From an uncultured delta proteobacterium (GTDB lineage Bacteria > Desulfobacterota > BSN033 > UBA1163): a DNA stretch of 64,000 nucleotides. The position numbers were made by a program, and so were the translations under genes. The notes under the pieces were generated by a model. The model saw nothing but the letters and a program-made list of their open reading frames with translations, searched no databases and was not told the DNA's origin. Positions 743 to 11,996 of this stretch are shown here, piece by piece (position 1 is the first letter of the stretch; the number at the start of each line of letters is the position of its first letter). Location: NCBI GenBank assembly GCA_963820625.1, contig CAWGAV010000016.1, positions 7,047 through 71,046 on the forward strand, written 5' to 3'.

Positions 743-2092
743 TTAACCCAGTGCTTTCTCCAGTGCCTCTGCCCAACGATCGATCTCTTCCTTTTTATTC
801 ATCTCAGTCACTGTGACGAGGAGATGATGATCGAGTTCAGGATAAAGTTTTTTCAAGGAAAAGCCTCCCAAAATCTTCTCCTTCTTTAACTTTTCCAGAA
901 CCTCTTCAGGCTTCCTTCCAATCTGCAAAACGAATTCATTAAAAGTAGGCGCAGTAAAATTCAGTTTGCAACCACGAATTCGAGAAATAACCTTCTTTGC
1001 ATACTCCGTTTTGCTCAGGTTCATCAGGGCTAATTCTTTCAAACCTTCTTTTCCAAGGCAGGATAAAAAAACCGTTGCCATCAGGGCACAAAGTCCTTCA
1101 TTCGTACAAATATTGGAGGTGGCTCGCTCCCTCCTAATATGCTGCTCCCTGGTAGCAAGGGTGAGGACAAAACCTCTCTTCCCTTCCAAATCAATCGTCT
1201 CGCCAACCAACCGGCCAGGCATATTTCTGACAAATCTTTCAAGGGTAGTGAAGATACCAAGGTAAGGACCACCATAAGAAACAGGCATACCCAGGCTCTG
1301 ACCTTCGCCTGTAACGATATCGGCTCCCATTGCGCCAGGGGGTTGCAAAATTCCATAAGCGATGGCTTCACTGAACCCTACGATCATCAACCCTCCACAG
1401 TCGTGGATTCTTTCCCCAATGGGTTGGAGATCTTCAATGACACCAAAAAAGTTGGGGCTCTGAATTACCACTGCGCTCACATCTTCTTTGAGGAGATCAA
1501 ACAAGATCTTCTCGTCCGTTCGACCCTCATCCTTCTGATAAGGGATCAGAATGATCTCCTGTTGATCAGGGTCGATGTAAGTCTGAATCACCCTTCGATA
1601 TTCTGGATGGATTGCCTGTGAGAGAAGGACTTTCTTCCTTCTCGTGATCCGGTTTGCCATCAAGACAGCTTCTGCTAAACTTGAGGCCCCATCATAAAGC
1701 GATGCGTTTGAAACTTCCATCCCCGTCAATTGGCACATCAATGTCTGGTATTCGAAGATCGCTTGAAGTGTCCCTTGGCTGATCTCAGGCTGATAAGGAG
1801 TGTAGGCCGTGTAAAACTCGGAGCGGGAGACCAAGTTAGGAACAACAGCAGGAATGAAATGATAGTAAGCCCCTGCTCCGAGAAAACTGCTCATCATAGG
1901 AACCTGGAGCTCTTGGAAGTGGCGAAGTAGATCCGGTTCGGAAAGAGCTTCAGGAAGGTTCAGAGGTTTGGAAAGCCTGTATTCTTTGGGAATGGTCTGG
2001 AAGAGGTCCTCCAGCTTCTCGACGCCAATGGCGTCGAGCATCTTTCGGATATCTTCTTCGGTATGAGGGATGTAACGCATAAAGTCTTGCAT
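743..2092 (-). CDS. gcvPA: Glycine dehydrogenase (decarboxylating) subunit 1
   Basis: MRYIPHT, FLGAGAYYHFIP, YTPYQPEISQGTLQAIFEYQ, TREQHIRRERATSNICTN. Confidence 0.97.
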   Translation of the reverse strand: MQDFMRYIPHTEEDIRKMLDAIGVEKLEDLFQTIPKEYRLSKPLNLPEALSEPDLLRHFQELQVPMMSSFLGAGAYYHFIPAVVPNLVSRSEFYTAYTPYQPEISQGTLQAIFEYQTLMCQLTGMEVSNASLYDGASSLAEAVLMANRITRRKKVLLSQAIHPEYRRVIQTYIDPDQQEIILIPYQKDEGRTDEKILFDLLKEDVSAVVIQSPNFFGVIEDLQPIGERIHDCGGLMIVGFSEAIAYGILQPPGAMGADIVTGEGQSLGMPVSYGGPYLGIFTTLERFVRNMPGRLVGETIDLEGKRGFVLTLATREQHIRRERATSNICTNEGLCALMATVFLSCLGKEGLKELALMNLSKTEYAKKVISRIRGCKLNFTAPTFNEFVLQIGRKPEEVLEKLKKEKILGGFSLKKLYPELDHHLLVTVTEMNKKEEIDRWAEALEKALG

Positions 2093-2482
2093 CTACAATT
2101 CCTCGGGTAAAAACCCTTGATAGGCTTTGGAGGATAAGAGTCCTTTTAACTCCTCTCTGTCTCGAATCTCCATTTTAACCAACCATCCTTTCCCGTAAGG
2201 ATCTTCGTTGACGAATTGGGGATGATCCTTGAGGGTAAAATTTGCATCCATCACTTTACCTGTAATCGGGGAGTAGATATCAGCAACGGTCTTTACAGAT
2301 TCAACCACTCCTATGCTATCTCCCCTTTTAAACTCAGATCCGACTTCAGGGATATCCACATAGACGATATCCTTCAATTGGCTCTGAGCATAGTCCGTCA
2401 GTCCGATCGTCACCTGACTTCCTTCGTCTTTCACCCATTCATGGCTCTCTGTGTAAAGCAAATCCTCTGGAAATTTCATCAC
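2093..2482 (-). CDS. gcvH: Glycine cleavage system H protein
   Basis: YTESHEWV, GLTDYAQ, lipoyl motif VESVKTVADIYSP, NEDPYGKGW. Confidence 0.97.
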   Translation of the reverse strand: MMKFPEDLLYTESHEWVKDEGSQVTIGLTDYAQSQLKDIVYVDIPEVGSEFKRGDSIGVVESVKTVADIYSPITGKVMDANFTLKDHPQFVNEDPYGKGWLVKMEIRDREELKGLLSSKAYQGFLPEEL

Positions 2483-2508
2483 GCCCCCCTTTTAAGCATT
2501 ATAATCCT

Positions 2509-2925
2509 TTATCTCAATTTTTCTAAAGGAATATTGATGACCGTTTCGAGGATAGAGATATGCTTCAGCTCGCCCTTGATCATGATCATATGTTTAGAAG
2601 TCTTAGGGGGCATCCTTCCCCCCGTTAAAGCTGTTTCGATGATCATTTCTTTGGTAACGGTTTCCCCCTCCCTGTGAGGAAGTACCTCGATCTCCGGCGA
2701 TTGGTAGTCGAAAAGAATGACAGGGATCCTTTTACACCCTATTTTTTTTAAAGCATGAAGACGATGATGTCCGTCTAAAATGATGAATGTATTTTTATCC
2801 ACAGCGATGGGCATTTTAAGGATTCCATCGAATAGGATCTCATTTTTCAATTCCTCCAAGTAATCGGGCCGAATCTCCTCGTGTTCTTTTAATGCTTCTA
2901 TTTCGATGAAAACAATATCACCCAC
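2509..2925 (-). CDS. Compact ParB/Sulfiredoxin-fold protein with SerK/SbnI (free serine kinase)-like motifs
   Basis: KEHEE, IILDGHHR and C-terminal MPPKTSKH...NIPLEKL motifs; GTG start; first gene after the glycine riboswitch. Confidence 0.75.
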   Translation of the reverse strand: MGDIVFIEIEALKEHEEIRPDYLEELKNEILFDGILKMPIAVDKNTFIILDGHHRLHALKKIGCKRIPVILFDYQSPEIEVLPHREGETVTKEMIIETALTGGRMPPKTSKHMIMIKGELKHISILETVINIPLEKLR

Positions 2926-3032
2926 TTCTGCAAGCTCAACCGTTTCGAAGGTTTAAATCTATGAGTCTTTAAGAAAGCTTTCCTTTTTCCCATGATCAAC
3001 CGACCACTTTTTCTTCTATTTCATTTCCACCT

Positions 3033-3077
3033 AAAATAAAAGGAGGAAGGACGATTGAATTCATATCGCCTTCCTCC
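3033..3077 (-). terminator. Intrinsic terminator, expression platform of the glycine riboswitch
   Basis: AGGAGGAAGG...CCTTCCTCCT stem followed by TTTATTTT on - strand; overlaps the aptamer-2 P1 3' strand. Confidence 0.8.
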
Positions 3078-3298
3078 TGTCTTTTGACCTGAGAGATTAT
3101 CCCTTAATAATCGGGGTTTTTCCCCTTCGGTGTCTAACCCTTCGACTGAAGCTCAGGGTTTACTTTGAGCAAAAGTCAGAGGTTCAGATCTTTCCAGGAT
3201 TTAATCAAGTTACAGTCCTTTTGCCTGAGAGTTTCGTCCCGATCTTCTCTGGATTTGCCCCTTCGGCGCCCCTTTTGATAAGGGGTCTCTCCTGTAAC
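3075..3298 (-). ncRNA. Tandem glycine riboswitch
   Basis: Aptamer 1 (3298-3209): GGAGAGAC..CGCCGAAGGGGCAA..AAACTCTCAGGCAAAAGGAC. Aptamer 2 (3199-3075): GGAAAGATC..CACCGAAGGGG..AATCTCTCAGGTCAAAAGACAGGA. Upstream of gcv genes. Confidence 0.93.
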
Positions 3299-3525
3299 TA
3301 AAAAAATTTTCTAACAATTGTAAGGTGATGTCAAGAGAAATCTGGGAGACACTTATGTAAACAATCTTGTTTGAGAAGAGAGGGTCATCTTTTTATTGCT
3401 TGTAATCAATTTCCCTCTTACATCCGGCATAGCTTCATGATGATAAACATTGTAGTTTCTTAACCCGCGCAGGAGTTCCTATTTTGAAAATGTCATCCTT
3501 AGAAGTCAGCGCTTACAGATTTCCA

Positions 3526-4614
3526 TTATTGACTTGCCCCACGAGCATAAATCTCAGCCACAGATTCCACGTAATCGTTACGGATAATAATATAACGATC
3601 ATGGAGGGGGATCGTTGTACAGCCATGACTTGGAATCAATTCGATTTTATCCCCGACGGATAGATCATGGTCCGGGTTTTCTATTCTCAGGTGGCCGTGT
3701 TCCTCATTCAGTCTGGAGACAGTGATCCCAGCCTCTCTACAGACAGGGAGCCCTTCATCTGTTGAAAGAGACTTCATTCCGGCATCGGTTACAGCCCTTT
3801 CTTTCTCGGGTCGACTGATGACCGTCGTCAAAACTGTGATGGTCTGCTCAAAATCGAGCCCATAAAACTTATTATGACTGTCCATGGTGACGTAGGAGCC
3901 GACCTGGATGTCCGTAATTCCGGAATAAAGGCCTGTAAGGTTAAACGTATTTGATCCACCGGCTGTGACAATTTCGACAGAAAAACCGTTCTTTTCAATG
4001 AGGCCCTTTGTCTCCACCAATAATTTATTGCATTCGGTGCACTTCTTCTTCTTCGCTTCGATGTCATTGATAAATAAACCACCTTCATAACCCATTAAGC
4101 CCCAAAAGACTAAATTCTTTAGTTCCATTATTTTTTGTACAAATTCTAATGCTGGTTTCCCAGGCCTGACCCCGCACCGATTCAATCCGACATTAATCTC
4201 TACAAGGACATCCATCTTCCCACCGATCTTTCCCGCCGCTTCAGAAATATTCCTTGCGTTTTCAAAATTATCAACACATACGATGAGGTTTCCATAATTG
4301 GAAAGATTAACCAGTCTCTGAATTTTTCCATTCCCTACAATTTCATTCGCGATCAAAACATTCTTAATCCCTGCCTCGAGAAATATCTTCGCCTCCCCGA
4401 GTTTGGCGCAAGTAACCCCAATGGCCCCTGCCTCGATCTGTTTATGGGCAATCATGGGGAGCTTATGCGTTTTGATATGGGGCCTGAGTTTGCAGGGTTT
4501 GTCAGAAAAGAAACTTGCCATCCTGGCGATATTTCTTTCCACAGCATCCATGTAAAGTAAAAGGGCAGGCGTATCCACTTCAGTCTTATGTCGGCCAATG
4601 ATGTTCTCCAACAT
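3526..4614 (-). CDS. DSD1 / D-threonine aldolase family PLP enzyme (fold type III)
   Basis: DTPALLL, LRPHIKTHK (PLP Lys), RCGV, DAGMKSLS, LNEEHG, PSHGCTT. Confidence 0.85.
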   Translation of the reverse strand: MLENIIGRHKTEVDTPALLLYMDAVERNIARMASFFSDKPCKLRPHIKTHKLPMIAHKQIEAGAIGVTCAKLGEAKIFLEAGIKNVLIANEIVGNGKIQRLVNLSNYGNLIVCVDNFENARNISEAAGKIGGKMDVLVEINVGLNRCGVRPGKPALEFVQKIMELKNLVFWGLMGYEGGLFINDIEAKKKKCTECNKLLVETKGLIEKNGFSVEIVTAGGSNTFNLTGLYSGITDIQVGSYVTMDSHNKFYGLDFEQTITVLTTVISRPEKERAVTDAGMKSLSTDEGLPVCREAGITVSRLNEEHGHLRIENPDHDLSVGDKIELIPSHGCTTIPLHDRYIIIRNDYVESVAEIYARGASQ

Positions 4615-4649
4615 GGGCTTTTCCTCCGTTCCTTAATTAAAATTAAGCG

Positions 4650-4681
4650 AAAAGGGCAGGGTATCAAGCCCTGCCCTTTTT
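4650..4681. terminator. Hairpin terminator between the substrate-binding gene and the DSD1-family gene
   Basis: AAAAGGGCAGGG-tatcaag-CCCTGCCCTTTT 12-bp stem with T tracts on both strands. Confidence 0.6.
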
Positions 4682-4733
4682 ATCTTTCGAATGGGGTTCG
4701 ATTTTTCTTCATCGGAGTTCAAGAAATCTCTCC

Positions 4734-6032
4734 TCATTCCTCTTTTTTAAGCCTTTCTTCCCACGTTGGAGCCGGCCAAATCGGTTTAGCACTTCTCATA
4801 TTCAACGGCCAAACAATTTCATGACGGCCTTTCTGACGTTGCTGTATCACAGCCGAAGCCAGGATGTTTTCACCCGTTGAATCAAATTTGACCCCTTTCC
4901 ATGGGACGATTACCTGATCTTGATTTAAGTTGGTCTCCGAAAGGGCCTTGATGATGGCCTTAGGATCCGTTGATCTAGCGCGGTTGATAGCATCACCAAG
5001 AACCAATAGGGCTTGAAGAGCACGAGCGCCGAGGTCGCTCATCCGTAAGTCTTGGCCAGTTCTCTTCACTCTCTGCTTAAACATTTCGTTTACTTGCTGC
5101 ATTTTTGGCTGGGTTTCGACAAGCCGCGGCGGGAAGATCCCTGGAGAAAAGATATAGTCTGAATCTCTGCCAGTAGCATTTAAAAAATCTGATAGGTTAT
5201 AAGAGTCCGGGTAGGCCATAAACACTTTCGCATCTACCCGATATTTTGCAAATGCCTTTTGTAAAAGGATGGCATTCCCTGAATAATGATGAAGCAGAAG
5301 AATTTCAGGCTGCATGGACTTTATTTTGAGAACATCCGATGTAACATCAGTTACCCTATCTTGAGTGGCAACAGCCCCTATAACTTTATAGCCTCGTGCT
5401 AATGCTTGTTCTGTGCCAGCCTTGGCAAAATCATTGCCCTGAAAAGAAGTATCATGTGAAAAGACACACCTCTCATATTTTGTACCAAATTCCTTTTGAC
5501 ATTCATCAATCATATCATGTGCATTCCTTACATAGGCCGTATTGATGGGCGTTGTCCGGAATACGACTTTGTAACCTTTCTTGCATATATCCGGGTTTAT
5601 GGCGTCAGCAACAACAAAAGGGACTCCATACCTTTCCGCTACTGGGATGGCCGTTATGGCTACTGCACTCTGATAACAACCTATAACGGCCACCACCTTT
5701 TCAACGGTGATCAATCGCTCTGTTTCCGCCCGGCCGATTTCAGGTTTTCCTTCGGTATCTCCCCATACAATTTCAATTTTGGCTCCTCCCAGATTCGGGA
5801 GTCCCTCGGTTTCGGCCAAGGGGATCCCTTTAAGATCTGTCTTGTTGTTGATGATGTCTTTGGCTAACTCAACCGCAGCCCTTGCCTCCTGGCCTTCACG
5901 TGAAACAGGTCCACTCAATGGCCAGATCGCTCCAATCCTAATCGTTTTTTCCGCTCCTTGAGCAGGAAACGACCCCAAAAGAACAAAACACACTAGAAAT
6001 AAACTGATAAAAATTTTCCTTTTCATAATCAT
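4734..6032 (-). CDS. Branched-chain amino acid ABC transporter substrate-binding protein (LivJ/K-like)
   Basis: Signal peptide; IRIGAIWPLSG, GAKIEIVWGDTEG, VIGCYQS; in an operon with livHMGF-like genes. Confidence 0.9.
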   Translation of the reverse strand: MIMKRKIFISLFLVCFVLLGSFPAQGAEKTIRIGAIWPLSGPVSREGQEARAAVELAKDIINNKTDLKGIPLAETEGLPNLGGAKIEIVWGDTEGKPEIGRAETERLITVEKVVAVIGCYQSAVAITAIPVAERYGVPFVVADAINPDICKKGYKVVFRTTPINTAYVRNAHDMIDECQKEFGTKYERCVFSHDTSFQGNDFAKAGTEQALARGYKVIGAVATQDRVTDVTSDVLKIKSMQPEILLLHHYSGNAILLQKAFAKYRVDAKVFMAYPDSYNLSDFLNATGRDSDYIFSPGIFPPRLVETQPKMQQVNEMFKQRVKRTGQDLRMSDLGARALQALLVLGDAINRARSTDPKAIIKALSETNLNQDQVIVPWKGVKFDSTGENILASAVIQQRQKGRHEIVWPLNMRSAKPIWPAPTWEERLKKEE

Positions 6033-6082
6033 GTCCTCCTTTCTTTTGGATTTTTATATGAAACGCTCGGTCATTTTATCTC

Positions 6083-6808
6083 CTATTCACCGCCAAGGTA
6101 GAGTTTGATGACCTCCGGATTGTTTTGAATTTCCTGTGTGGGACCCTCCATTCTGTTCTTCCCATTTTCAAGCACATATGCCCGGTGCGATATGGATAAT
6201 GCACTTTTTGCATTCTGTTCGACAATCATCATTGTGATTTGAAGTTGCTCATTGATCTCCTTAATCTTCTGGAAAATAGTGCGGACAATGGTAGGGGCCA
6301 AACCCAGAGTGGGTTCGTCCAAAAGAAGAAGTTCAGGCCTTTGGATCAGAGCTCGAGCGATTTCGAGCATTCGTTGCTGGCCTCCGCTCATCGTGCCCGC
6401 CAATTCATTCTTCTTTTCTGCAAGAACAGGAAACATCTCCAGAGCTGTATTAATATCCTTTTTTATCTGAACTTTGTCTTTTCGTGTAAAGGCCCCCATT
6501 TCAAGATTTTCTATCACCTTCATCCTTTGAAAAATGCTATGGTGCTGAAACACATACACGATCCCCTTTTTCATGATCTCTACCACATTCAGATAGGTAA
6601 TATCATCCTTTTTGAAGTAGACCGAACCCTTTCGAGGATGTAAGAAGCCAGTGGCTGACTTAAAAACCGTTGATTTTCCTGCCCCGTTCGGCCCAATGAT
6701 ACAGATACATTCCCCTTTATCGACTTCAAAGGAGACGCCTTTTAGGACATCAAACTTTCCATATGTAGAAAAAATATTGTCTATTTTAAAGAATGAATTA
6801 GTATCCAA
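6083..6808 (-). CDS. livF: Branched-chain amino acid ABC ATPase
   Basis: GPNGAGKST, MSGGQQRMLEIARAL, LLLDEPTLGLAP. Confidence 0.9.
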   Translation of the reverse strand: MDTNSFFKIDNIFSTYGKFDVLKGVSFEVDKGECICIIGPNGAGKSTVFKSATGFLHPRKGSVYFKKDDITYLNVVEIMKKGIVYVFQHHSIFQRMKVIENLEMGAFTRKDKVQIKKDINTALEMFPVLAEKKNELAGTMSGGQQRMLEIARALIQRPELLLLDEPTLGLAPTIVRTIFQKIKEINEQLQITMMIVEQNAKSALSISHRAYVLENGKNRMEGPTQEIQNNPEVIKLYLGGE

Positions 6809-7535
6809 AGTAGGCCTCGATCACTTTTCCATCACATTGCACCTCGGTACTGGTCCCCTCACATATCTTTTTACCATGGTCCAGGACATAAACACGCTCG
6901 CACAGATTCATCACCACCTTCATATTGTGCTCGATGATGAACATGGTCTTTCCCTGATCATGAAGTTTCCTGATCAATGACATGATTTTATTGATCATGA
7001 CAGGATTGACGCCCGAGGTCGGCTCATCGAGAAGAATCAATTCAGGGTCTGGTATGAGGATCATGGCAAACTCAAGAAGTTTCTGCTGCCCATACGAAAC
7101 CTCCCCTGCCAATTCGTTTCGCAATCTTGTCAGACCAACAAATTCAAGCCAATAGTCTACCAGGTCACATAAGAGTTGATCAAAACTTTTCGTTGGCGTC
7201 CGAAGGAAGTTCTCCCCAAGATGATTCCGGGCCAATACCATATTTTGGAACAAGGTTAAATCATGGAAGACCCGGGCAAGCTGAAAAGTTCTGGCAATCC
7301 CTTTTTGGGCAATTTTGTAAGGGGAGAGGCCAATTATGTCTTCATTTTTAAACACGATTTCCCCTTTATCGGCTTGGTAAAGACCTGTGACACAATTAAA
7401 AAGAGTTGTCTTTCCTGATCCATTTGGACCGATCAAACCCACGATTTCCCCTTGTTTCACGGTAATATTCACTTCATCAACGGCTATTAAGCCACCGAAA
7501 CTCTTTGTCAATCCATGGATACTCAGGACACTCAT
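6798..7535 (-). CDS. livG: Branched-chain amino acid ABC ATPase
   Basis: GPNGSGKTT, GIARTFQ, SYGQQKLLE, LDEPTSGVNP, C-terminal VIEAYFG. Confidence 0.9.
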   Translation of the reverse strand: MSVLSIHGLTKSFGGLIAVDEVNITVKQGEIVGLIGPNGSGKTTLFNCVTGLYQADKGEIVFKNEDIIGLSPYKIAQKGIARTFQLARVFHDLTLFQNMVLARNHLGENFLRTPTKSFDQLLCDLVDYWLEFVGLTRLRNELAGEVSYGQQKLLEFAMILIPDPELILLDEPTSGVNPVMINKIMSLIRKLHDQGKTMFIIEHNMKVVMNLCERVYVLDHGKKICEGTSTEVQCDGKVIEAYFGY

Positions 7536-7541
7536 GACTTA

Positions 7542-8558
7542 TTACCTTCTCCGAAAAGTGGGCCCGAGTTCATCCTCATATAACTTGAAGGTCTTCCCGA
7601 ATCTCCTTTTAACAATCCCAATCAGCCCCCTGGGCTCATAGAGAGCTAATAGAACGATAACAAAACCGTAAATCAAGATGTGAACTCCTCTCCCTCCTCC
7701 TCCAAAAGCCGTACGCGCGTATTCGGCTAAAGGGATTAGAAGGGTTGCGCCCAAAATTGGCCCCAATACCGTTCCCATCCCACCCACCATGGGTATGATG
7801 ATAATAAGAAGAGCAAACTCTAAATTGAGCAGGCTATCAGGATCAATATAAAGAATGTATTGAGCATAAAATGTACCAGCAAATGAAGTGATCACAGCAC
7901 TGATGACAAAGGCAAGCAATTTATACCTTCGAGAATCAATCCCAAGGCTTTTGGCCCTTTCCTCATCCTCTTTAATGGCCTTTAAATAAACCCCAAGGGT
8001 GGATTTATCTATCTTCCAAAGAAAGGCTACCACCAAAACGGCCATCGTTAATATGATATAAAAATAAGGTTCCTTATTTGCCCACTGCACATAATAGGTG
8101 GAATGTCCCAGAATAGGAATTTGGAAACCGAAGGCTCGATTCACGAAGTTCCAGTTCAGAAATATGATATAGGTAATTTCTGCGAGCCCGAGGGTTCCAA
8201 TAGCAAAATAATGTCCTCTAAGATCAAAAAAGATCTGCCCGATAAAAATGGCCGCAATCGAAGCCAAGATAGCACCCGGTATCACACCTATCCAAGGAGG
8301 CAGACCAACTTTTAACAACAACATGGTCGATGTATAGGCCCCGAGAGTAAAAAAGATGTGATTCCCCAAAGAGATCTGCCCTGAATATCCTCCAAGGATG
8401 TTCCAGGCCTGACCGAGCACCACATACATGAGCAAAATAATCATGACATGCCTAGGATGAGGGTCGGTAAAAATCCAGGGATACGAAACTAAAAAACCCA
8501 ATAGTAAAATTATGCCCCAAATTTTATAACCCCTTATTTTCTCAAGTACTCTTTCCAT
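7542..8558 (-). CDS. livM: Branched-chain amino acid ABC permease
   Basis: WNILGGYSGQISLG, LRGHYFAIGTL, GGMGTVLGPILG; hydrophobic. Confidence 0.9.
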   Translation of the reverse strand: MERVLEKIRGYKIWGIILLLGFLVSYPWIFTDPHPRHVMIILLMYVVLGQAWNILGGYSGQISLGNHIFFTLGAYTSTMLLLKVGLPPWIGVIPGAILASIAAIFIGQIFFDLRGHYFAIGTLGLAEITYIIFLNWNFVNRAFGFQIPILGHSTYYVQWANKEPYFYIILTMAVLVVAFLWKIDKSTLGVYLKAIKEDEERAKSLGIDSRRYKLLAFVISAVITSFAGTFYAQYILYIDPDSLLNLEFALLIIIIPMVGGMGTVLGPILGATLLIPLAEYARTAFGGGGRGVHILIYGFVIVLLALYEPRGLIGIVKRRFGKTFKLYEDELGPTFRRR

Positions 8559-8583
8559 CCCACAATCCCATAATGCAATGACA

Positions 8584-9453
8584 TTAAAATTTTCCGAAAA
8601 GGCCTTTAGGTCTGTATATTAAAATAAATATGAATGTCGCATACACGAAAACCATTTTAAATGTTGGAACGAAGACCGTGCCCAATACGTTCTCAATGAC
8701 GCCAATCATCATTCCTCCGAGGTAGACTCCCCAGAAACTCCCAAAGCCTCCCAAGGCAACGGAGATATAGGAAATCAGGGTAAACATCCAGCCCGAATAT
8801 ATGTGTACTGGGTAGTATGTGGCCAGAAGCACACCTCCGAGTCCAACACACATAATTCCGATTCCCCATCCTATGGCGTTGACCTTGTCCGTATAAATCC
8901 CCATCTCCATTGCTGCCTCTTTATTCTGAGAGGTTGCCTGGATGGCTTTTCCAAGTTTTGTCCTTTTGATGAATAAGAATAAAAGAGCAGTTGCTGCAAA
9001 ACTTCCGAAAAATGCTACCAGTTCGGCCTTGGTAATATAAATATTACCAATATCCAGAATCCCTGACAGCAGATTGTCATTTACTTTTCTAACATCAGCA
9101 CTCCAGAAGAAATAGGCCCCGTAACGTAAGAACAGGCCTAAACCAAAAGTACTGAACATCTGTGCTACCATGGGGGCATCGAGGATCCGGCGAATAACAA
9201 CTTTGTAAGTCGCTGCTCCAGCGAAAAACCAAATAAACAACACAAAAGGTAGGGTGACCAAAGGATCCCATCCCAGAAGGTAATTTGCCCAAAAAGTCGC
9301 ATACATCGCCAGCATGAGATAATCTCCATGGGCAAAATTGACGATGTTCATAAGTCCGAAGATAAGGGAGAGACCCACAGCCACCAGGGCATAGATCCCT
9401 CCTATCAACAACCCGCTGATGCTTGACTGAAGAAGAAGTTGAAAGGATATCAT
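8584..9453 (-). CDS. livH: Branched-chain amino acid ABC permease
   Basis: YALVAVGLSLIFG..IVNFAHG, LGGFGS; hydrophobic. Confidence 0.9.
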   Translation of the reverse strand: MISFQLLLQSSISGLLIGGIYALVAVGLSLIFGLMNIVNFAHGDYLMLAMYATFWANYLLGWDPLVTLPFVLFIWFFAGAATYKVVIRRILDAPMVAQMFSTFGLGLFLRYGAYFFWSADVRKVNDNLLSGILDIGNIYITKAELVAFFGSFAATALLFLFIKRTKLGKAIQATSQNKEAAMEMGIYTDKVNAIGWGIGIMCVGLGGVLLATYYPVHIYSGWMFTLISYISVALGGFGSFWGVYLGGMMIGVIENVLGTVFVPTFKMVFVYATFIFILIYRPKGLFGKF

Positions 9454-9482
9454 TTCTTATTCTATTAACAGGTTTTCCCATT

Positions 9483-10613
9483 TCACTTGGAAATGAGGTC
9501 GCCATAGAAAAAAGGTTGAAGTTTAAGAAATCTTCCAGGAGACTGTATTATCTCTCTCATCAATTCAATCTGATGATTGTGAATTTTTACATCCAGATAA
9601 TCGATGCAGGGATTCCTCAAGCCAGAGGGACCATCAATAGCTCCTCGATTACATGCCGCTTCAAGAATCCGAGTCTCCATTTCAGTACTTTGAAGAATCT
9701 CGGGCTGAGATAAGAGATACGCCAAACAGGCCAAAAAGGCATAGGTGGCATCTTCCGAAATAGCGCCGAAAATGGTCGCCTCAGCGGGATAGGAAGCTCC
9801 AATACCCCCACTGCAACCACATCGACATTTTTCTCCATAAAAGATCGTCTTTTTTGTCGCTTCTTTTAGGACCCCCATTCCTAACTCATTGCCCAAATCG
9901 CCTATCCCAATGGTTAAGCCACCTCTCTTCCCAACACCTTCGAAAAGTTCATCAATTTTTGCCACAAAATCGGTGATCGATCGCCCATTGGCCATGTGAT
10001 AAAACCCCTTTTCGTTTCTTCCCGGACGCTCAATGGAAATGGCTGCCTTGGGGTTCATCTCATCCAATATCCTATTGGCTTCTTCCGGGGCGCTTTGGGC
10101 ATCCTTGGTAAATGGAAGCACAGTAACCGTGTGGGGCATCAATAGGCTGATTTTAAAATTATTGAATACCCTGAGTCCGGCTGCTTCACAGCAGCCTTCG
10201 ACAATATGTACACTCTCGTCTTCACAAAAAACAACGGGTTTCCCTTTAAATCCAAGATCAACTGCACGGGCAATCAAGGCTGCCGCAACAACTCCATCAG
10301 TTTCAGTAGCTAACATATTGCTACTAAAGGTATGTTCCTTGAAGACCCTTCCATCCTTTAGGACATCAAAGGGCCCTACTGGAAAACCGGCCATGATAAA
10401 GACGACATCTCCCTCTTTGATCTTATCCACGAACTTCTGGGCTGCACGCATGGTCAAAGGCCCATCCGATTTATCGCGAGCCGCTTGGTACAGGGGATGA
10501 ATATGTCCCTGTCCTCGCCAATCGATCGTGATCAATCTATCCAGATTTGCGCCAATTATATTCATAAACTTTTTCTCAACTTTTTTTTCCATTTGTTCTA
10601 TCCTCACGATCAA
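9483..10613 (-). CDS. DUF4392 / D-glutamate cyclase-like protein
   Basis: ETDG, ISIERPGRN..YHMANG, TIGIGDLGNELGMG, GAIDG motifs. Confidence 0.75.
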   Translation of the reverse strand: MIVRIEQMEKKVEKKFMNIIGANLDRLITIDWRGQGHIHPLYQAARDKSDGPLTMRAAQKFVDKIKEGDVVFIMAGFPVGPFDVLKDGRVFKEHTFSSNMLATETDGVVAAALIARAVDLGFKGKPVVFCEDESVHIVEGCCEAAGLRVFNNFKISLLMPHTVTVLPFTKDAQSAPEEANRILDEMNPKAAISIERPGRNEKGFYHMANGRSITDFVAKIDELFEGVGKRGGLTIGIGDLGNELGMGVLKEATKKTIFYGEKCRCGCSGGIGASYPAEATIFGAISEDATYAFLACLAYLLSQPEILQSTEMETRILEAACNRGAIDGPSGLRNPCIDYLDVKIHNHQIELMREIIQSPGRFLKLQPFFYGDLISK

Positions 10614-10693
10614 AAGTTTTTTAATTTTGGGGATTTATGCAACACAAATCAAATATATTTGTGCTGCATCATCCATTAGTTTTTACAAGCGAA

Positions 10694-10813
10694 TTATGGA
10701 TATTTAAGGATGTCATCTAACAAGATCTGATTTTTCAATTCTTCCAAGTAATTAGGTCTAACCTCTTCGTGTTCTTTCAATTTTTCTATTTTGGGAAGAA
10801 GAATATCCTCCAT
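10694..10813 (-). pseudogene. Truncated paralog (39 codons) of the ParB/SerK-like gene at 2509-2925
   Basis: MEDILLPKIEKLKEHEEVRPNYLEELKNQILLDDILKYP* versus MGDIVFIEIEALKEHEEIRPDYLEELKNEILFDGILKMP; about 27 of 39 identical by hand count. Confidence 0.85.
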
Positions 10814-10920: not shown

Positions 10921-11310
10921 TTATTGAAACACCTTCTCATTCACTAAGTTTGGAGGCCGCTTGCCCGTGAGCCCTGCCACCAAATTTTAAGCCGCCATGG
11001 TAGCCATCCGAAGACAGGTCGGATGGGAAGCACTCACAATATGGGGCGCCAGAACAAAATTCTTTATCGGGATGAGGGCTGGTTCAACTTCGGGCTCTTT
11101 TGCGTACACATCCAGACCCGCTCCAGCAATCTTCCCCTCCTTCAGGGCATAGAGCCCTCTCATCAACCGCAGGGTCCCGAGAAGTAATGCCAAATGGCAG
11201 TAGGCTTCATAAAAGCCATCTCAGCTGGAGATACAGTGCGTTGTTTGAGGGACCAGCGGCACATGAAGCATCACAAAATCAGATTCGGTCAGCAAGTTTT
11301 CTTGTCTGCA
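10921..11310 (-). pseudogene. Remnant of a D-glycerate dehydrogenase / glyoxylate reductase (2-hydroxyacid dehydrogenase), C-terminal third
   Basis: Fragments spread over frames: [78 protein letters not shown]. Confidence 0.85.
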
Positions 11311-11330
11311 ATTGGATCTTTGCATTCTTC

Positions 11331-11873
11331 TTATGCTCCTTTTTTCAAGACCAAATCGATCATCAGCTCATTGGCGAGACGATGGAGGTCCTCTCTTAAC
11401 CCCTGCTCAGATATCGACCGGGGTACTTCCACCTCCATATCCATCTCAAAAAGCGGCGTCCCGCTCTCTGCAGAGAGCACACGATGGGTTTCCATGTCAA
11501 TGATATTGACTTTACGGTCAGCCAAAAGGCGGCAGACCTTGAAGACGATTCCGGCGTGATCCACCCCTGAAGTGGTGATTTTGAACCGGTCGGTCTCTTC
11601 CTTGATTTTGGGATAAGCCTCTTCAAAGGTGATCGGAGAATAGAAGACGGTCAAATTCTTTTCCCCTCCGAGTCGTTTCAGGGCGAAAGAAAGTTTCTGA
11701 TTCACCTCCTCCCTTTCTGTAGAAAAAAGGAGGAGAAGGGCGAAGTGGTTTCGAAGAAGACTCATGCTCGAATCCTCGACATTCCCCCCACACTCATAAA
11801 TCACTTCCGAAACATCGGCTACAATTCCTGGCCGATCCTTCCCCATCGCCGATAGGATAAAATAGGTCTTCAT
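11331..11873 (-). CDS. gcvR: ACT-domain glycine cleavage system regulator (GcvR-like)
   Basis: Two ACT repeats: ILSAMGKDRPGIVA and TSGVDHAGIVF; ATG at 11873 preceded by GGAGGA. Confidence 0.8.
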   Translation of the reverse strand: MKTYFILSAMGKDRPGIVADVSEVIYECGGNVEDSSMSLLRNHFALLLLFSTEREEVNQKLSFALKRLGGEKNLTVFYSPITFEEAYPKIKEETDRFKITTSGVDHAGIVFKVCRLLADRKVNIIDMETHRVLSAESGTPLFEMDMEVEVPRSISEQGLREDLHRLANELMIDLVLKKGA

Positions 11874-11895
11874 GGTTTCCTCCAATTTCGCACAG

Positions 11896-11996
11896 CGCAT
11901 GGAGCATAGAGTAACTCAGGGCTTTAGCCCTGAGGTCAGCCCTGAAGGGCTGGAGTTACACCCTATGCCCTTTGCCCTATGCTCTTTGCTTATTAC
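11896..11996. repeat. Inverted pair of GTAA-led REP-like palindromes flanked by heptamer-periodic arms
   Basis: GTAACTCAGGGCTTTAGCCCTGAG and reverse GTAACTCCAGCCCTTCAGGGCTGA, flanked by gcatggagcatagag and ctatgccctttgccctatgc. Confidence 0.6.

Follow-up and report, generated by a model that had tools for sequence, protein, structure and literature searches.

Free-serine kinases are known only from a few archaea and from staphylococci. The archaeal enzyme, SerK (TK0378; PDB 5X0B and related entries), phosphorylates free L-serine in an ADP-dependent manner in Thermococcus kodakarensis; in P. furiosus it is PF0380 (1VK1). The staphylococcal enzyme, SbnI, is an ATP-dependent serine kinase and a regulator of staphyloferrin B synthesis (PDB 5UJD, 5UJE, and 6NR6). 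It was proposed that the SerK route together with GlyA can serve glycine assimilation, phosphoserine being converted to 3-phosphoglycerate (Makino 2016, PMC5120207). Some serK genes, in Desulfurococcales, adjoin genes of 2-hydroxyacid dehydrogenases (PMC5120207), and no clear-cut bacterial homologues of SerK were reported by Makino et al. (PMC5120207). Proteins of the DUF1015 family, named 'SerBK', were proposed to be serine kinases acting on the way from serine to 3-phosphoglycerate; they are remotely SbnI-like and are encoded beside serA (Price et al., GapMind 2026, PMC13759103). Sulfiredoxin (Srx) has a compact fold of about 100 aa, and its nucleotide motif carries the catalytic Cys.

The window analyzed here is a stretch of 64,000 nucleotides from the 71%-complete genome of an uncultured delta proteobacterium (contig CAWGAV010000016.1). 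An operon of the glycine cleavage system (GCS) is encoded at its beginning on the minus strand. A sigma-70-like promoter, TTGACA-17-GAAAAT (3306–3334), recognized by consensus match only, lies directly upstream of a tandem glycine riboswitch. The first gene, with its core at 2509–2925, encodes 138 aa from a GTG start and bears the motifs HEE (residues 15–17), DGHHR (51–55), PPKTSKH (106–112), and IPLEKL (132–137); we refer to its product as the mini protein. More than 500 homologues of this open reading frame were found; thus, it is a real gene. It is followed after 26 nt, with a strong SD sequence, by gcvH (2093–2482; 129 aa; PF01597, E = 2.4e-44), then by gcvPA (743–2092; 449 aa; PF02347, E = 2.6e-133) and by the N-terminal part of gcvPB (1–570), which is truncated by the window edge and was assigned from the ORF call and the homologous order in related loci. 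No gcvT was found in this operon segment, the sole GCV_T match of the genome being located on another contig. The first-pass annotation, which had placed a protein with these motifs between a tandem glycine riboswitch and gcvH and had noted the lack of gcvT in the segment, held in both respects. A D-threonine-aldolase/BhcC-like gene and an amino-acid transporter gene are located upstream in the window, and a GcvR-like ACT protein is encoded near the operon.

Both riboswitch aptamers matched RF00504: aptamer 1 (3203–3304, minus strand) with 73.1 bits and aptamer 2 (3067–3207, minus strand) with 46.2 bits, at a gathering score of 32. The second aptamer fell below the gathering threshold in the initial search of the window, and its score comes from the search of the whole genome. 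The tandem model RF03166 covered 3073–3308, i.e., both aptamers, and its alignment placed an insertion of about 47 nt in the variable loop of aptamer 2. The expression platform is an intrinsic terminator (3032–3078, minus strand), composed of a 14-bp GC-rich stem (3041–3078) and the subsequent UUUUAUUUU. Folding of the hairpin with its U-tract (3032–3040) gave −24.5 kcal/mol with z = −3.1. This hairpin was detected by folding the region and was absent from the terminator scan, the rule of which admits only loops of 3–8 nt. The 5' arm of the terminator overlaps the 3' end of aptamer 2. Such a layout is typical of a glycine-ON transcriptional switch, the ON direction being inferred from this overlap. 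The locus thus has what defines a tandem glycine riboswitch, namely a pair of RF00504 aptamers and, after them, a terminator competing with aptamer 2, and the arrangement is conserved in relatives. No other glycine riboswitch was found in the 71%-complete genome; the only one is at the mini gene.

The length of 138 aa given in the first-pass annotation had to be corrected. In the nearest relatives, up to 99% identical, the protein has 161 aa and begins with a Lys-rich N-terminal tail, MGKRKAFLKTHRFNPSKRLSLQK; this basic tail of 23 aa is a feature of a sub-clade. In the window the 23 codons of the tail start with ATG 2993 and occupy 2925–2993 on the minus strand, but the absence of one G near position 2925 puts them in a different frame from the core: where a metagenomic contig of 98% identity reads GCAGAAGGTGGG, the aligned DNA of the window reads GCAGAA-GTGGG. 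Tail-less forms of 138 aa occur naturally in other members of the clade, and there about 56 nt separate the end of the riboswitch from the start codon. The neighboring genes are intact; therefore, the lesion may be either one error of the assembly or a mutation of recent date.

It is accordingly possible that the mini gene is decaying in this genome, the deletion of one nucleotide being genuine and the core poorly expressed; translation from ATG 2993 would then stop out of frame at about 2892. The frameshift is visible against the 98%-identical contig; the first 20 kb otherwise contain intact genes, which shows that indels do not abound in the assembly; and the locus is rearranged and contains a decayed older copy. 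Against decay, the core is 99% identical to that of an intact relative and has no second lesion, the GTG codon lies exactly at the junction, tail-less forms exist in nature, and a single assembly error is not excluded.

The closest relative of known structure was SerK. Residues 3–82 of the mini protein matched SerK residues 17–100 (5x0b) with E = 1e-12 in a phmmer search of the PDB, and a second, weak stretch placed residues 89–117 on SerK 202–230. The next PDB match after SerK was SbnI, with its ParB-fold N-domain (E = 5e-7). SerK was also the best NCBIfam match (NF053625), with 66.9 bits, under the equivalog cut-off of 380 bits; the score with NF033589 was 36.9 bits, under the equivalog cut-off of 350 bits. 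Comparison of the mini family with full-length SerK-like proteins by hhalign gave 99.95% probability and E = 3e-38, both ends being aligned across a gap of about 100 aa, which corresponds to the SerK middle domain. The full-length SerK-like proteins were hits of 260–320 aa with two matching stretches, and their profile fits the SerK crystal chains end to end. In the joint alignment, about 105 residues that follow the W-R-R position and a C-terminal extension of 25–40 residues have no counterpart in the mini protein, which has a hairpin of 9 residues instead. The SerK middle domain, which comprises about 100 aa and closes the cleft, is therefore absent from the mini protein, as shown by the alignment gap of about 105 columns. 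It had been claimed earlier that both ends of the SerK-type protein are kept and that a middle domain of about 100 aa is absent; this was confirmed by hhalign and by the joint alignment. Because the mini protein stays below the curated cut-offs of both SerK and SbnI and is without one of the defining domains, it is to be regarded as a variant and not as a member of SerK or SbnI.

The AF2 model, built from an input of 56 sequences, had a pLDDT of 95.8 and a pTM of 0.87. In Foldseek it matched SerK over the full length with TMq of 0.80–0.82 and SbnI with 0.68–0.70, whereas ParB, Noc, KorB, and Srx reached TMq of only 0.37–0.47 and only over the first ~85 residues. Thus, in the structural comparison that had been named as a check, the protein grouped over its full length with SerK and SbnI and not with Srx or ParB CTPases. 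The TMt values were only 0.47–0.49, in keeping with the missing middle domain. Twelve columns were invariant in mini and full-length proteins together: H15, E16, D51, G52, H54, R55, P68, Y74, K92, K108, T109, and H112. All of them fall within the shared parts, and no invariant column was found in the middle domain. H15 and E16, invariant in the family, align to SerK H29 and E30; DGHHR 51–55 aligns to the SerK DGHHR and is at least 96% conserved in both gcv and non-gcv groups; K92 and PPKTSKH (106–112) align to SerK 205 and 219–225.

Two other identities were rejected. The identity of a ParB CTPase DNA clamp was excluded by the score with TIGR00180 (26.5 bits vs. 58.45), by the lack of an HTH or dimerization domain, and by the structure. 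The basic ParB N-terminal fold, which is shared, is represented by a match to PF02195 with 23.3 bits, below its cut-off of 26.3. The identity of a sulfiredoxin was excluded by TMq of 0.37–0.46 and by the DGHHR motif without Cys.

The same data bear on two non-kinase functions. The first is action on a protein partner, either an ATP-dependent, Srx-like modification or repair of the lipoyl H-protein or a non-catalytic role as a subunit of the complex. The mini gene always lies immediately before gcvH, the operon also contains lplA, lpd, and lipA, and Srx shares the basic fold. We nevertheless regard this function as very unlikely: the structural similarity to Srx is low (TMq just 0.37–0.46), DGHHR is as in SerK with no Cys-containing Srx motif, the SerK-specific C-terminal segment is retained, and the closest non-gcv relatives work with CysK/M and not with lipoyl proteins. 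The second is a nucleotide-binding regulator, corresponding to the second role of SbnI or to a ParB-type switch, with the Lys-rich tail binding nucleic acid. It is supported by the basic tail of 23 aa in one sub-clade and by NCBIfam and PDB, which name SbnI a bifunctional transcriptional regulator. This possibility can hardly be upheld either, since an HTH or other DNA-binding domain is missing, many members of the clade have no tail, the catalytic Glu is invariant, and the operon is already served by the riboswitch, with a GcvR-like ACT protein nearby.

The small form is not restricted to gcv operons. In a library of cluster representatives, 1609 clusters were found at E < 1e-3 and 662 at E < 1e-10, their members being mostly of 120–170 aa; hence, the small proteins make up a large family and are not truncated products. 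Protein P0259 consists of a mini domain and a CysK/M domain (395.7 bits, above the subfamily cut-off); P0124 combines a mini domain, a degenerate second mini domain, and a CysK/M-like domain, and P0125 has the same tandem of mini domains without the PLP domain. These natural tandem fusions make it possible, by inference, that the small proteins act as dimers. Fusions to a nucleotidyltransferase (P0242) and to a PaaK-like ligase (P0241) were also observed.

Neighborhoods of non-gcv minis were sampled among proteins 41–58% identical to that of the window. A CysK/M-type or other PLP (PALP-fold) enzyme was encoded next to the mini gene in 8 of the 10 contexts (L022, L023, L027, L028, L054, L055, L056, and L059). 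The CysK/M gene directly adjoins the mini gene in archaeal L022, L028, and L054 and in L027; in L023 a CBS-type enzyme is followed by a PLP-dependent enzyme of Cys/Met metabolism (PF01053); in Bathyarchaeial L055 and L056 a gene for a PALP-fold protein of 455 aa overlaps the mini gene; and in L059 the neighbor is a divergent PALP-fold gene. The genes cysS, NifS/NifU, and Rrf2 often occur near these minis. No PALP-fold neighbor was found in the two remaining contexts, L057 and L058, which represent one non-gcv lineage. The fusions and neighbors fit a kinase that, like SerK and SbnI, provides beta-replacement enzymes with O-phosphoserine; this is evidence from context only, the activity being inferred. 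Serine-kinase chemistry is supported independently of the gcv operon by the non-gcv relatives, which are linked by fusion or adjacency to CysK/M-type or other PLP (PALP-fold) enzymes.

The gcv-linked minis, 67–99% identical to that of the window, were found in Thermodesulfobacteriota MAGs labelled Deltaproteobacteria, Syntrophaceae, or Syntrophorhabdus, and they form a single clade with support of 100/99. The order mini–gcvH–gcvPA–gcvPB was retained in all 21 loci with downstream sequence, and lplA, lpd, and sometimes lipA continued it wherever the sequence extended that far. A glycine riboswitch was present in 19 of the 19 loci of the clade with enough upstream sequence, as well as in L001–L004, L024, and L026. 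The linkage to gcv, also proposed earlier as a check, was therefore conserved (21/21 related bacterial loci, with the riboswitch in 19/19). The gene is rare in the phylum (12 of 301 genomes), strong hits being confined to the family of the window. In that family, each of the three carriers tested had exactly one tandem glycine riboswitch, at the mini gene, and no glycine riboswitch was found in the three non-carriers tested.

A 2-hydroxyacid dehydrogenase gene adjoins the mini gene on its upstream side in part of the clade (L026, L043, L049, L050, L052, and L053). Its product scored best as a glyoxylate reductase (404 bits vs. the cut-off of 455) and had 256 bits as a phosphoglycerate dehydrogenase. 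Three of these loci (L026, L052, and L053) have the riboswitch first, then the dehydrogenase gene, and then the mini gene; therefore, both genes are co-regulated there. By inference, this glyoxylate/hydroxypyruvate-reductase-like dehydrogenase is co-transcribed with the mini gene in part of the clade.

All residues conserved at 80% or more in non-gcv minis were kept in the gcv clade. Eight positions were fixed in this clade only (R19, Y22, N28, M38, Q75, E86, R104, and M105) and are variable elsewhere in the family. Because the conserved residues are kept and the clade-specific sites vary elsewhere, there is no sign of lost chemistry in the gcv clade; an altered substrate is not excluded by this inference from conservation. 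Such a case would be a small-molecule kinase of the SerK type acting in the gcv clade on another substrate, i.e., D-glycerate or another product of the dehydrogenase, L-threonine, homoserine, or D-serine. The adjacent dehydrogenase, with its best score as glyoxylate reductase in six loci, the D-threonine-aldolase/BhcC-like and transporter genes upstream in the window, and the eight positions fixed in the clade speak for it. We consider it unlikely, since the strongly conserved residues are all common to the CysK/M-linked relatives, the clade-specific positions are variable elsewhere, and the cluster's own products (GCS and SHMT) make serine.

The only GcvT of the genome is a fusion protein of 900 aa, with GcvT (303.5 bits, above the cut-off) and a divergent SHMT (244.9 bits, cut-off 335). 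All 10 genomes of the family encode the GcvT–SHMT fusion; its gene in G274 and G053 belongs to the same cluster and lies on the same strand, about 1.3–1.5 kb after lipA, with one gene between. As inferred from gene content, the cluster of the relatives with the fusion encodes everything needed to convert two glycines to serine. An Fe-S serine dehydratase was not found in any of the 10 family genomes. CysE was present, and the idea that the mini protein is needed for ordinary cysteine synthesis in the gcv clade was rejected on this ground. SerB was encoded in 9 of the 10; therefore, a serine kinase risks a futile cycle unless it is tightly regulated, and control of the mini gene by glycine appears sensible given SerB. 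No match to the serC_1-type phosphoserine aminotransferase (TIGR01364) was found in the 10 genomes; other PSAT types exist.

Taken over all alternatives, the reading that we favor, by a modest margin, is that the mini protein is a glycine-induced minimal L-serine kinase ('mini-SerK') acting downstream of GCS and SHMT; its activity and substrate are inferred from sequence, the structure model, and gene context, and its phosphate donor may be ADP, ATP, or another NTP. Mini-SerK would consist of the ParB/Srx-like nucleotide-binding fold and the SerK C-terminal segment K-x(15)-PKT[ST][KR]H. Abundant glycine would bind the tandem riboswitch, the 3' strand of aptamer 2 would be kept from the terminator, and the operon would be transcribed, this direction also being inferred. 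Two glycines would be converted to serine by GcvH, GcvP, and the GcvT–SHMT fusion, whose gene belongs to this cluster in relatives, and mini-SerK would turn L-serine into O-phospho-L-serine. The base may be the invariant Glu16, which corresponds to Glu30 of SerK, and DGHHR, Lys92, Lys108, Thr109, and His112 are predicted to hold the nucleotide and the substrate, a prediction made without comparison to the serine contacts of the crystal structures. A second subunit may stand in for the missing lid domain, as inferred from the natural tandem fusions. Phosphoserine would be converted to 3-phosphoglycerate via the reversed phosphorylated serine pathway or, alternatively, to cysteine.

The earlier proposal of a minimal amino-acid kinase induced by glycine and linking glycine/serine to phosphoserine is thus supported in silico, with kinase activity and substrate inferred. 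Its designation as an accessory function of the glycine cleavage system is best taken to mean a reaction that follows GCS and SHMT, not a part of the complex.

Several points count against the kinase reading. The SerK middle domain is missing, and its part in the serine pocket is undetermined; the score of 66.9 bits is far from the SerK equivalog cut-off of 380. There are no biochemical data on any mini form. The onward route of phosphoserine is undocumented, with no serC_1 match, and the neighboring dehydrogenase scores higher as glyoxylate reductase than as phosphoglycerate dehydrogenase. Finally, the L057/L058 lineage has no PALP neighbor, and the copy of the window is frameshifted after the N-terminal tail.

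A bolder reading, which we put forward only as a hypothesis and judge less likely than not, joins these elements. The form of ~140 aa would be a widespread, self-sufficient amino-acid kinase, dimeric and possibly the ancestral SerK. It would have been recruited in one Thermodesulfobacteriota lineage together with the glycine riboswitch, a complete GCS, lipoylation genes, and the GcvT–SHMT fusion. The resulting module would lead from glycine via phosphoserine to 3-phosphoglycerate; it would thus assimilate glycine by running the phosphorylated serine pathway in reverse, a solution at which DUF1015 proteins elsewhere would have arrived independently.

In the literature searched, the coverage of which was incomplete, we found no description of the small family or of its linkage to gcv and the riboswitch, and nothing relevant on a link of a ParB-like gene to a glycine riboswitch or gcvH. 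To judge from this literature, serine phosphorylation had not previously been linked to the glycine cleavage system. If active, the small proteins would account for missing steps of cysteine biosynthesis in many uncultured archaea and bacteria via phosphoserine-dependent CysK/M enzymes, define the smallest catalytic core of SerK-type kinases, and extend the glycine-riboswitch regulon by a new class of genes. The gcv clade suggests a route for surplus glycine into central carbon metabolism in anaerobes without Fe-S serine dehydratase.

In comparison with known systems, the DUF1015 'SerBK' proteins belong to a separate and much larger family, and the protein of the window has no match to PF06245. 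Sulfiredoxin and the ParB/Noc/KorB CTPase domains share with the mini protein the basic ParB N-terminal fold of ~85 residues, but the mini protein lacks an HTH or dimerization domain and has the SerK-type C-terminal segment. SbnI has in common with it the ParB-fold N-domain and, as a supplier of phosphoserine to the PALP-fold enzyme SbnA, a role that the CysK/M-linked minis appear to share; it differs by its length of 254 aa, its extra domain, its more distant relationship, and its context of siderophore synthesis. SerK has the same fold across the 138 aa of the mini protein, and the HE motif with the catalytic Glu, DGHHR, and the TKE...PKT[ST][KR]H segment are common to both, as are genomic ties to CysK-type enzymes, 2-hydroxyacid dehydrogenases, and glycine/serine assimilation. 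Unlike SerK, the mini protein of this locus, for which data on activity and donor are lacking, is bacterial and is encoded under a glycine riboswitch.

The mini gene, the small SerK-like ParB-fold gene that follows the glycine riboswitch, has a second, truncated copy on the minus strand at 10667–10813. It reads MEDILLPKIEKLKEHEEVRPNYLEELKNQILLDDILKYP and then runs into a stop codon; this remnant has 59% identity to the live mini copy and falls within the gcv clade, i.e., the mini proteins linked to gcvH, gcvPA and gcvPB. Upstream of the truncated copy, on the same strand, a decayed remnant of a 2-hydroxyacid dehydrogenase gene was identified (approximately 10985–11330). The gene order of the relatives is GlmU-GlmS-UvrD-ACT-[dehydrogenase]-mini-gcvH, whereas in the window the old junction is now parted from gcvH by a block of about 7 kb and a fresh riboswitch–mini unit.

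Immediately upstream of the glycine riboswitch lies a gene block (3526–10613, minus strand) that encodes a PLP enzyme of the BhcC/D-threonine aldolase family (268.8 bits against a cut-off of 690), a D-glutamate-cyclase-like protein, and both a LIV-type ABC transporter and the binding protein belonging to it. A plausible role of this block is the import of a beta-hydroxy or D-amino acid from which glycine is released. The second aptamer of the riboswitch carries an insertion of about 47 nt in a variable loop (3136–3160, minus strand), which reduced its Rfam score.

In contig_26839 of a relative (loci L001/L033), gcvPA, gcvPB, lplA and lpd were each broken into several ORFs, the usual signature of indel errors in assemblies built from long reads. 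This contig serves as a caution: single frameshifts in such MAGs require read support.

A GcvT–SHMT fusion protein of 900 aa was encoded elsewhere in the MAG to which the window belongs (contig C1, 8322–11024, plus strand; positions 1501–4203 of locus L060). Its GcvT part scored over the curated cut-off, and the SHMT part was divergent. Across the family the fusion was conserved, being present in 10 of 10 genomes; in two of them, G274 and G053, it terminates the riboswitch–mini–gcvHP–lplA–lpd–lipA cluster. We failed to find a description of a fusion of this kind in the literature searched. The protein from C1 shared 98% identity with its counterpart from G246, a genome of the same family assigned to a different genus and containing neither the mini gene nor the riboswitch; identity to other family members was 67–84%. 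Contig C1 may have been mis-binned, or else genera may have been loosely assigned.

The mini domain also occurs in natural fusions, seen in four proteins from outside the window (P0124, P0125, P0241 and P0242). One fusion type is a tandem, the degenerate second copy of which lacks HE and DGHHR; the further partners are a sugar-phosphate nucleotidyltransferase or a PaaK-like adenylating ligase. These fusions hint that the mini domain functions as a dimer and that its roles are not confined to cysteine synthesis.

The window also encodes, at 11331–11900 on the minus strand, a protein of 189 aa with two ACT domains (ACT_6 and ACT); it is kept beside the locus in the relatives and resembles GcvR.
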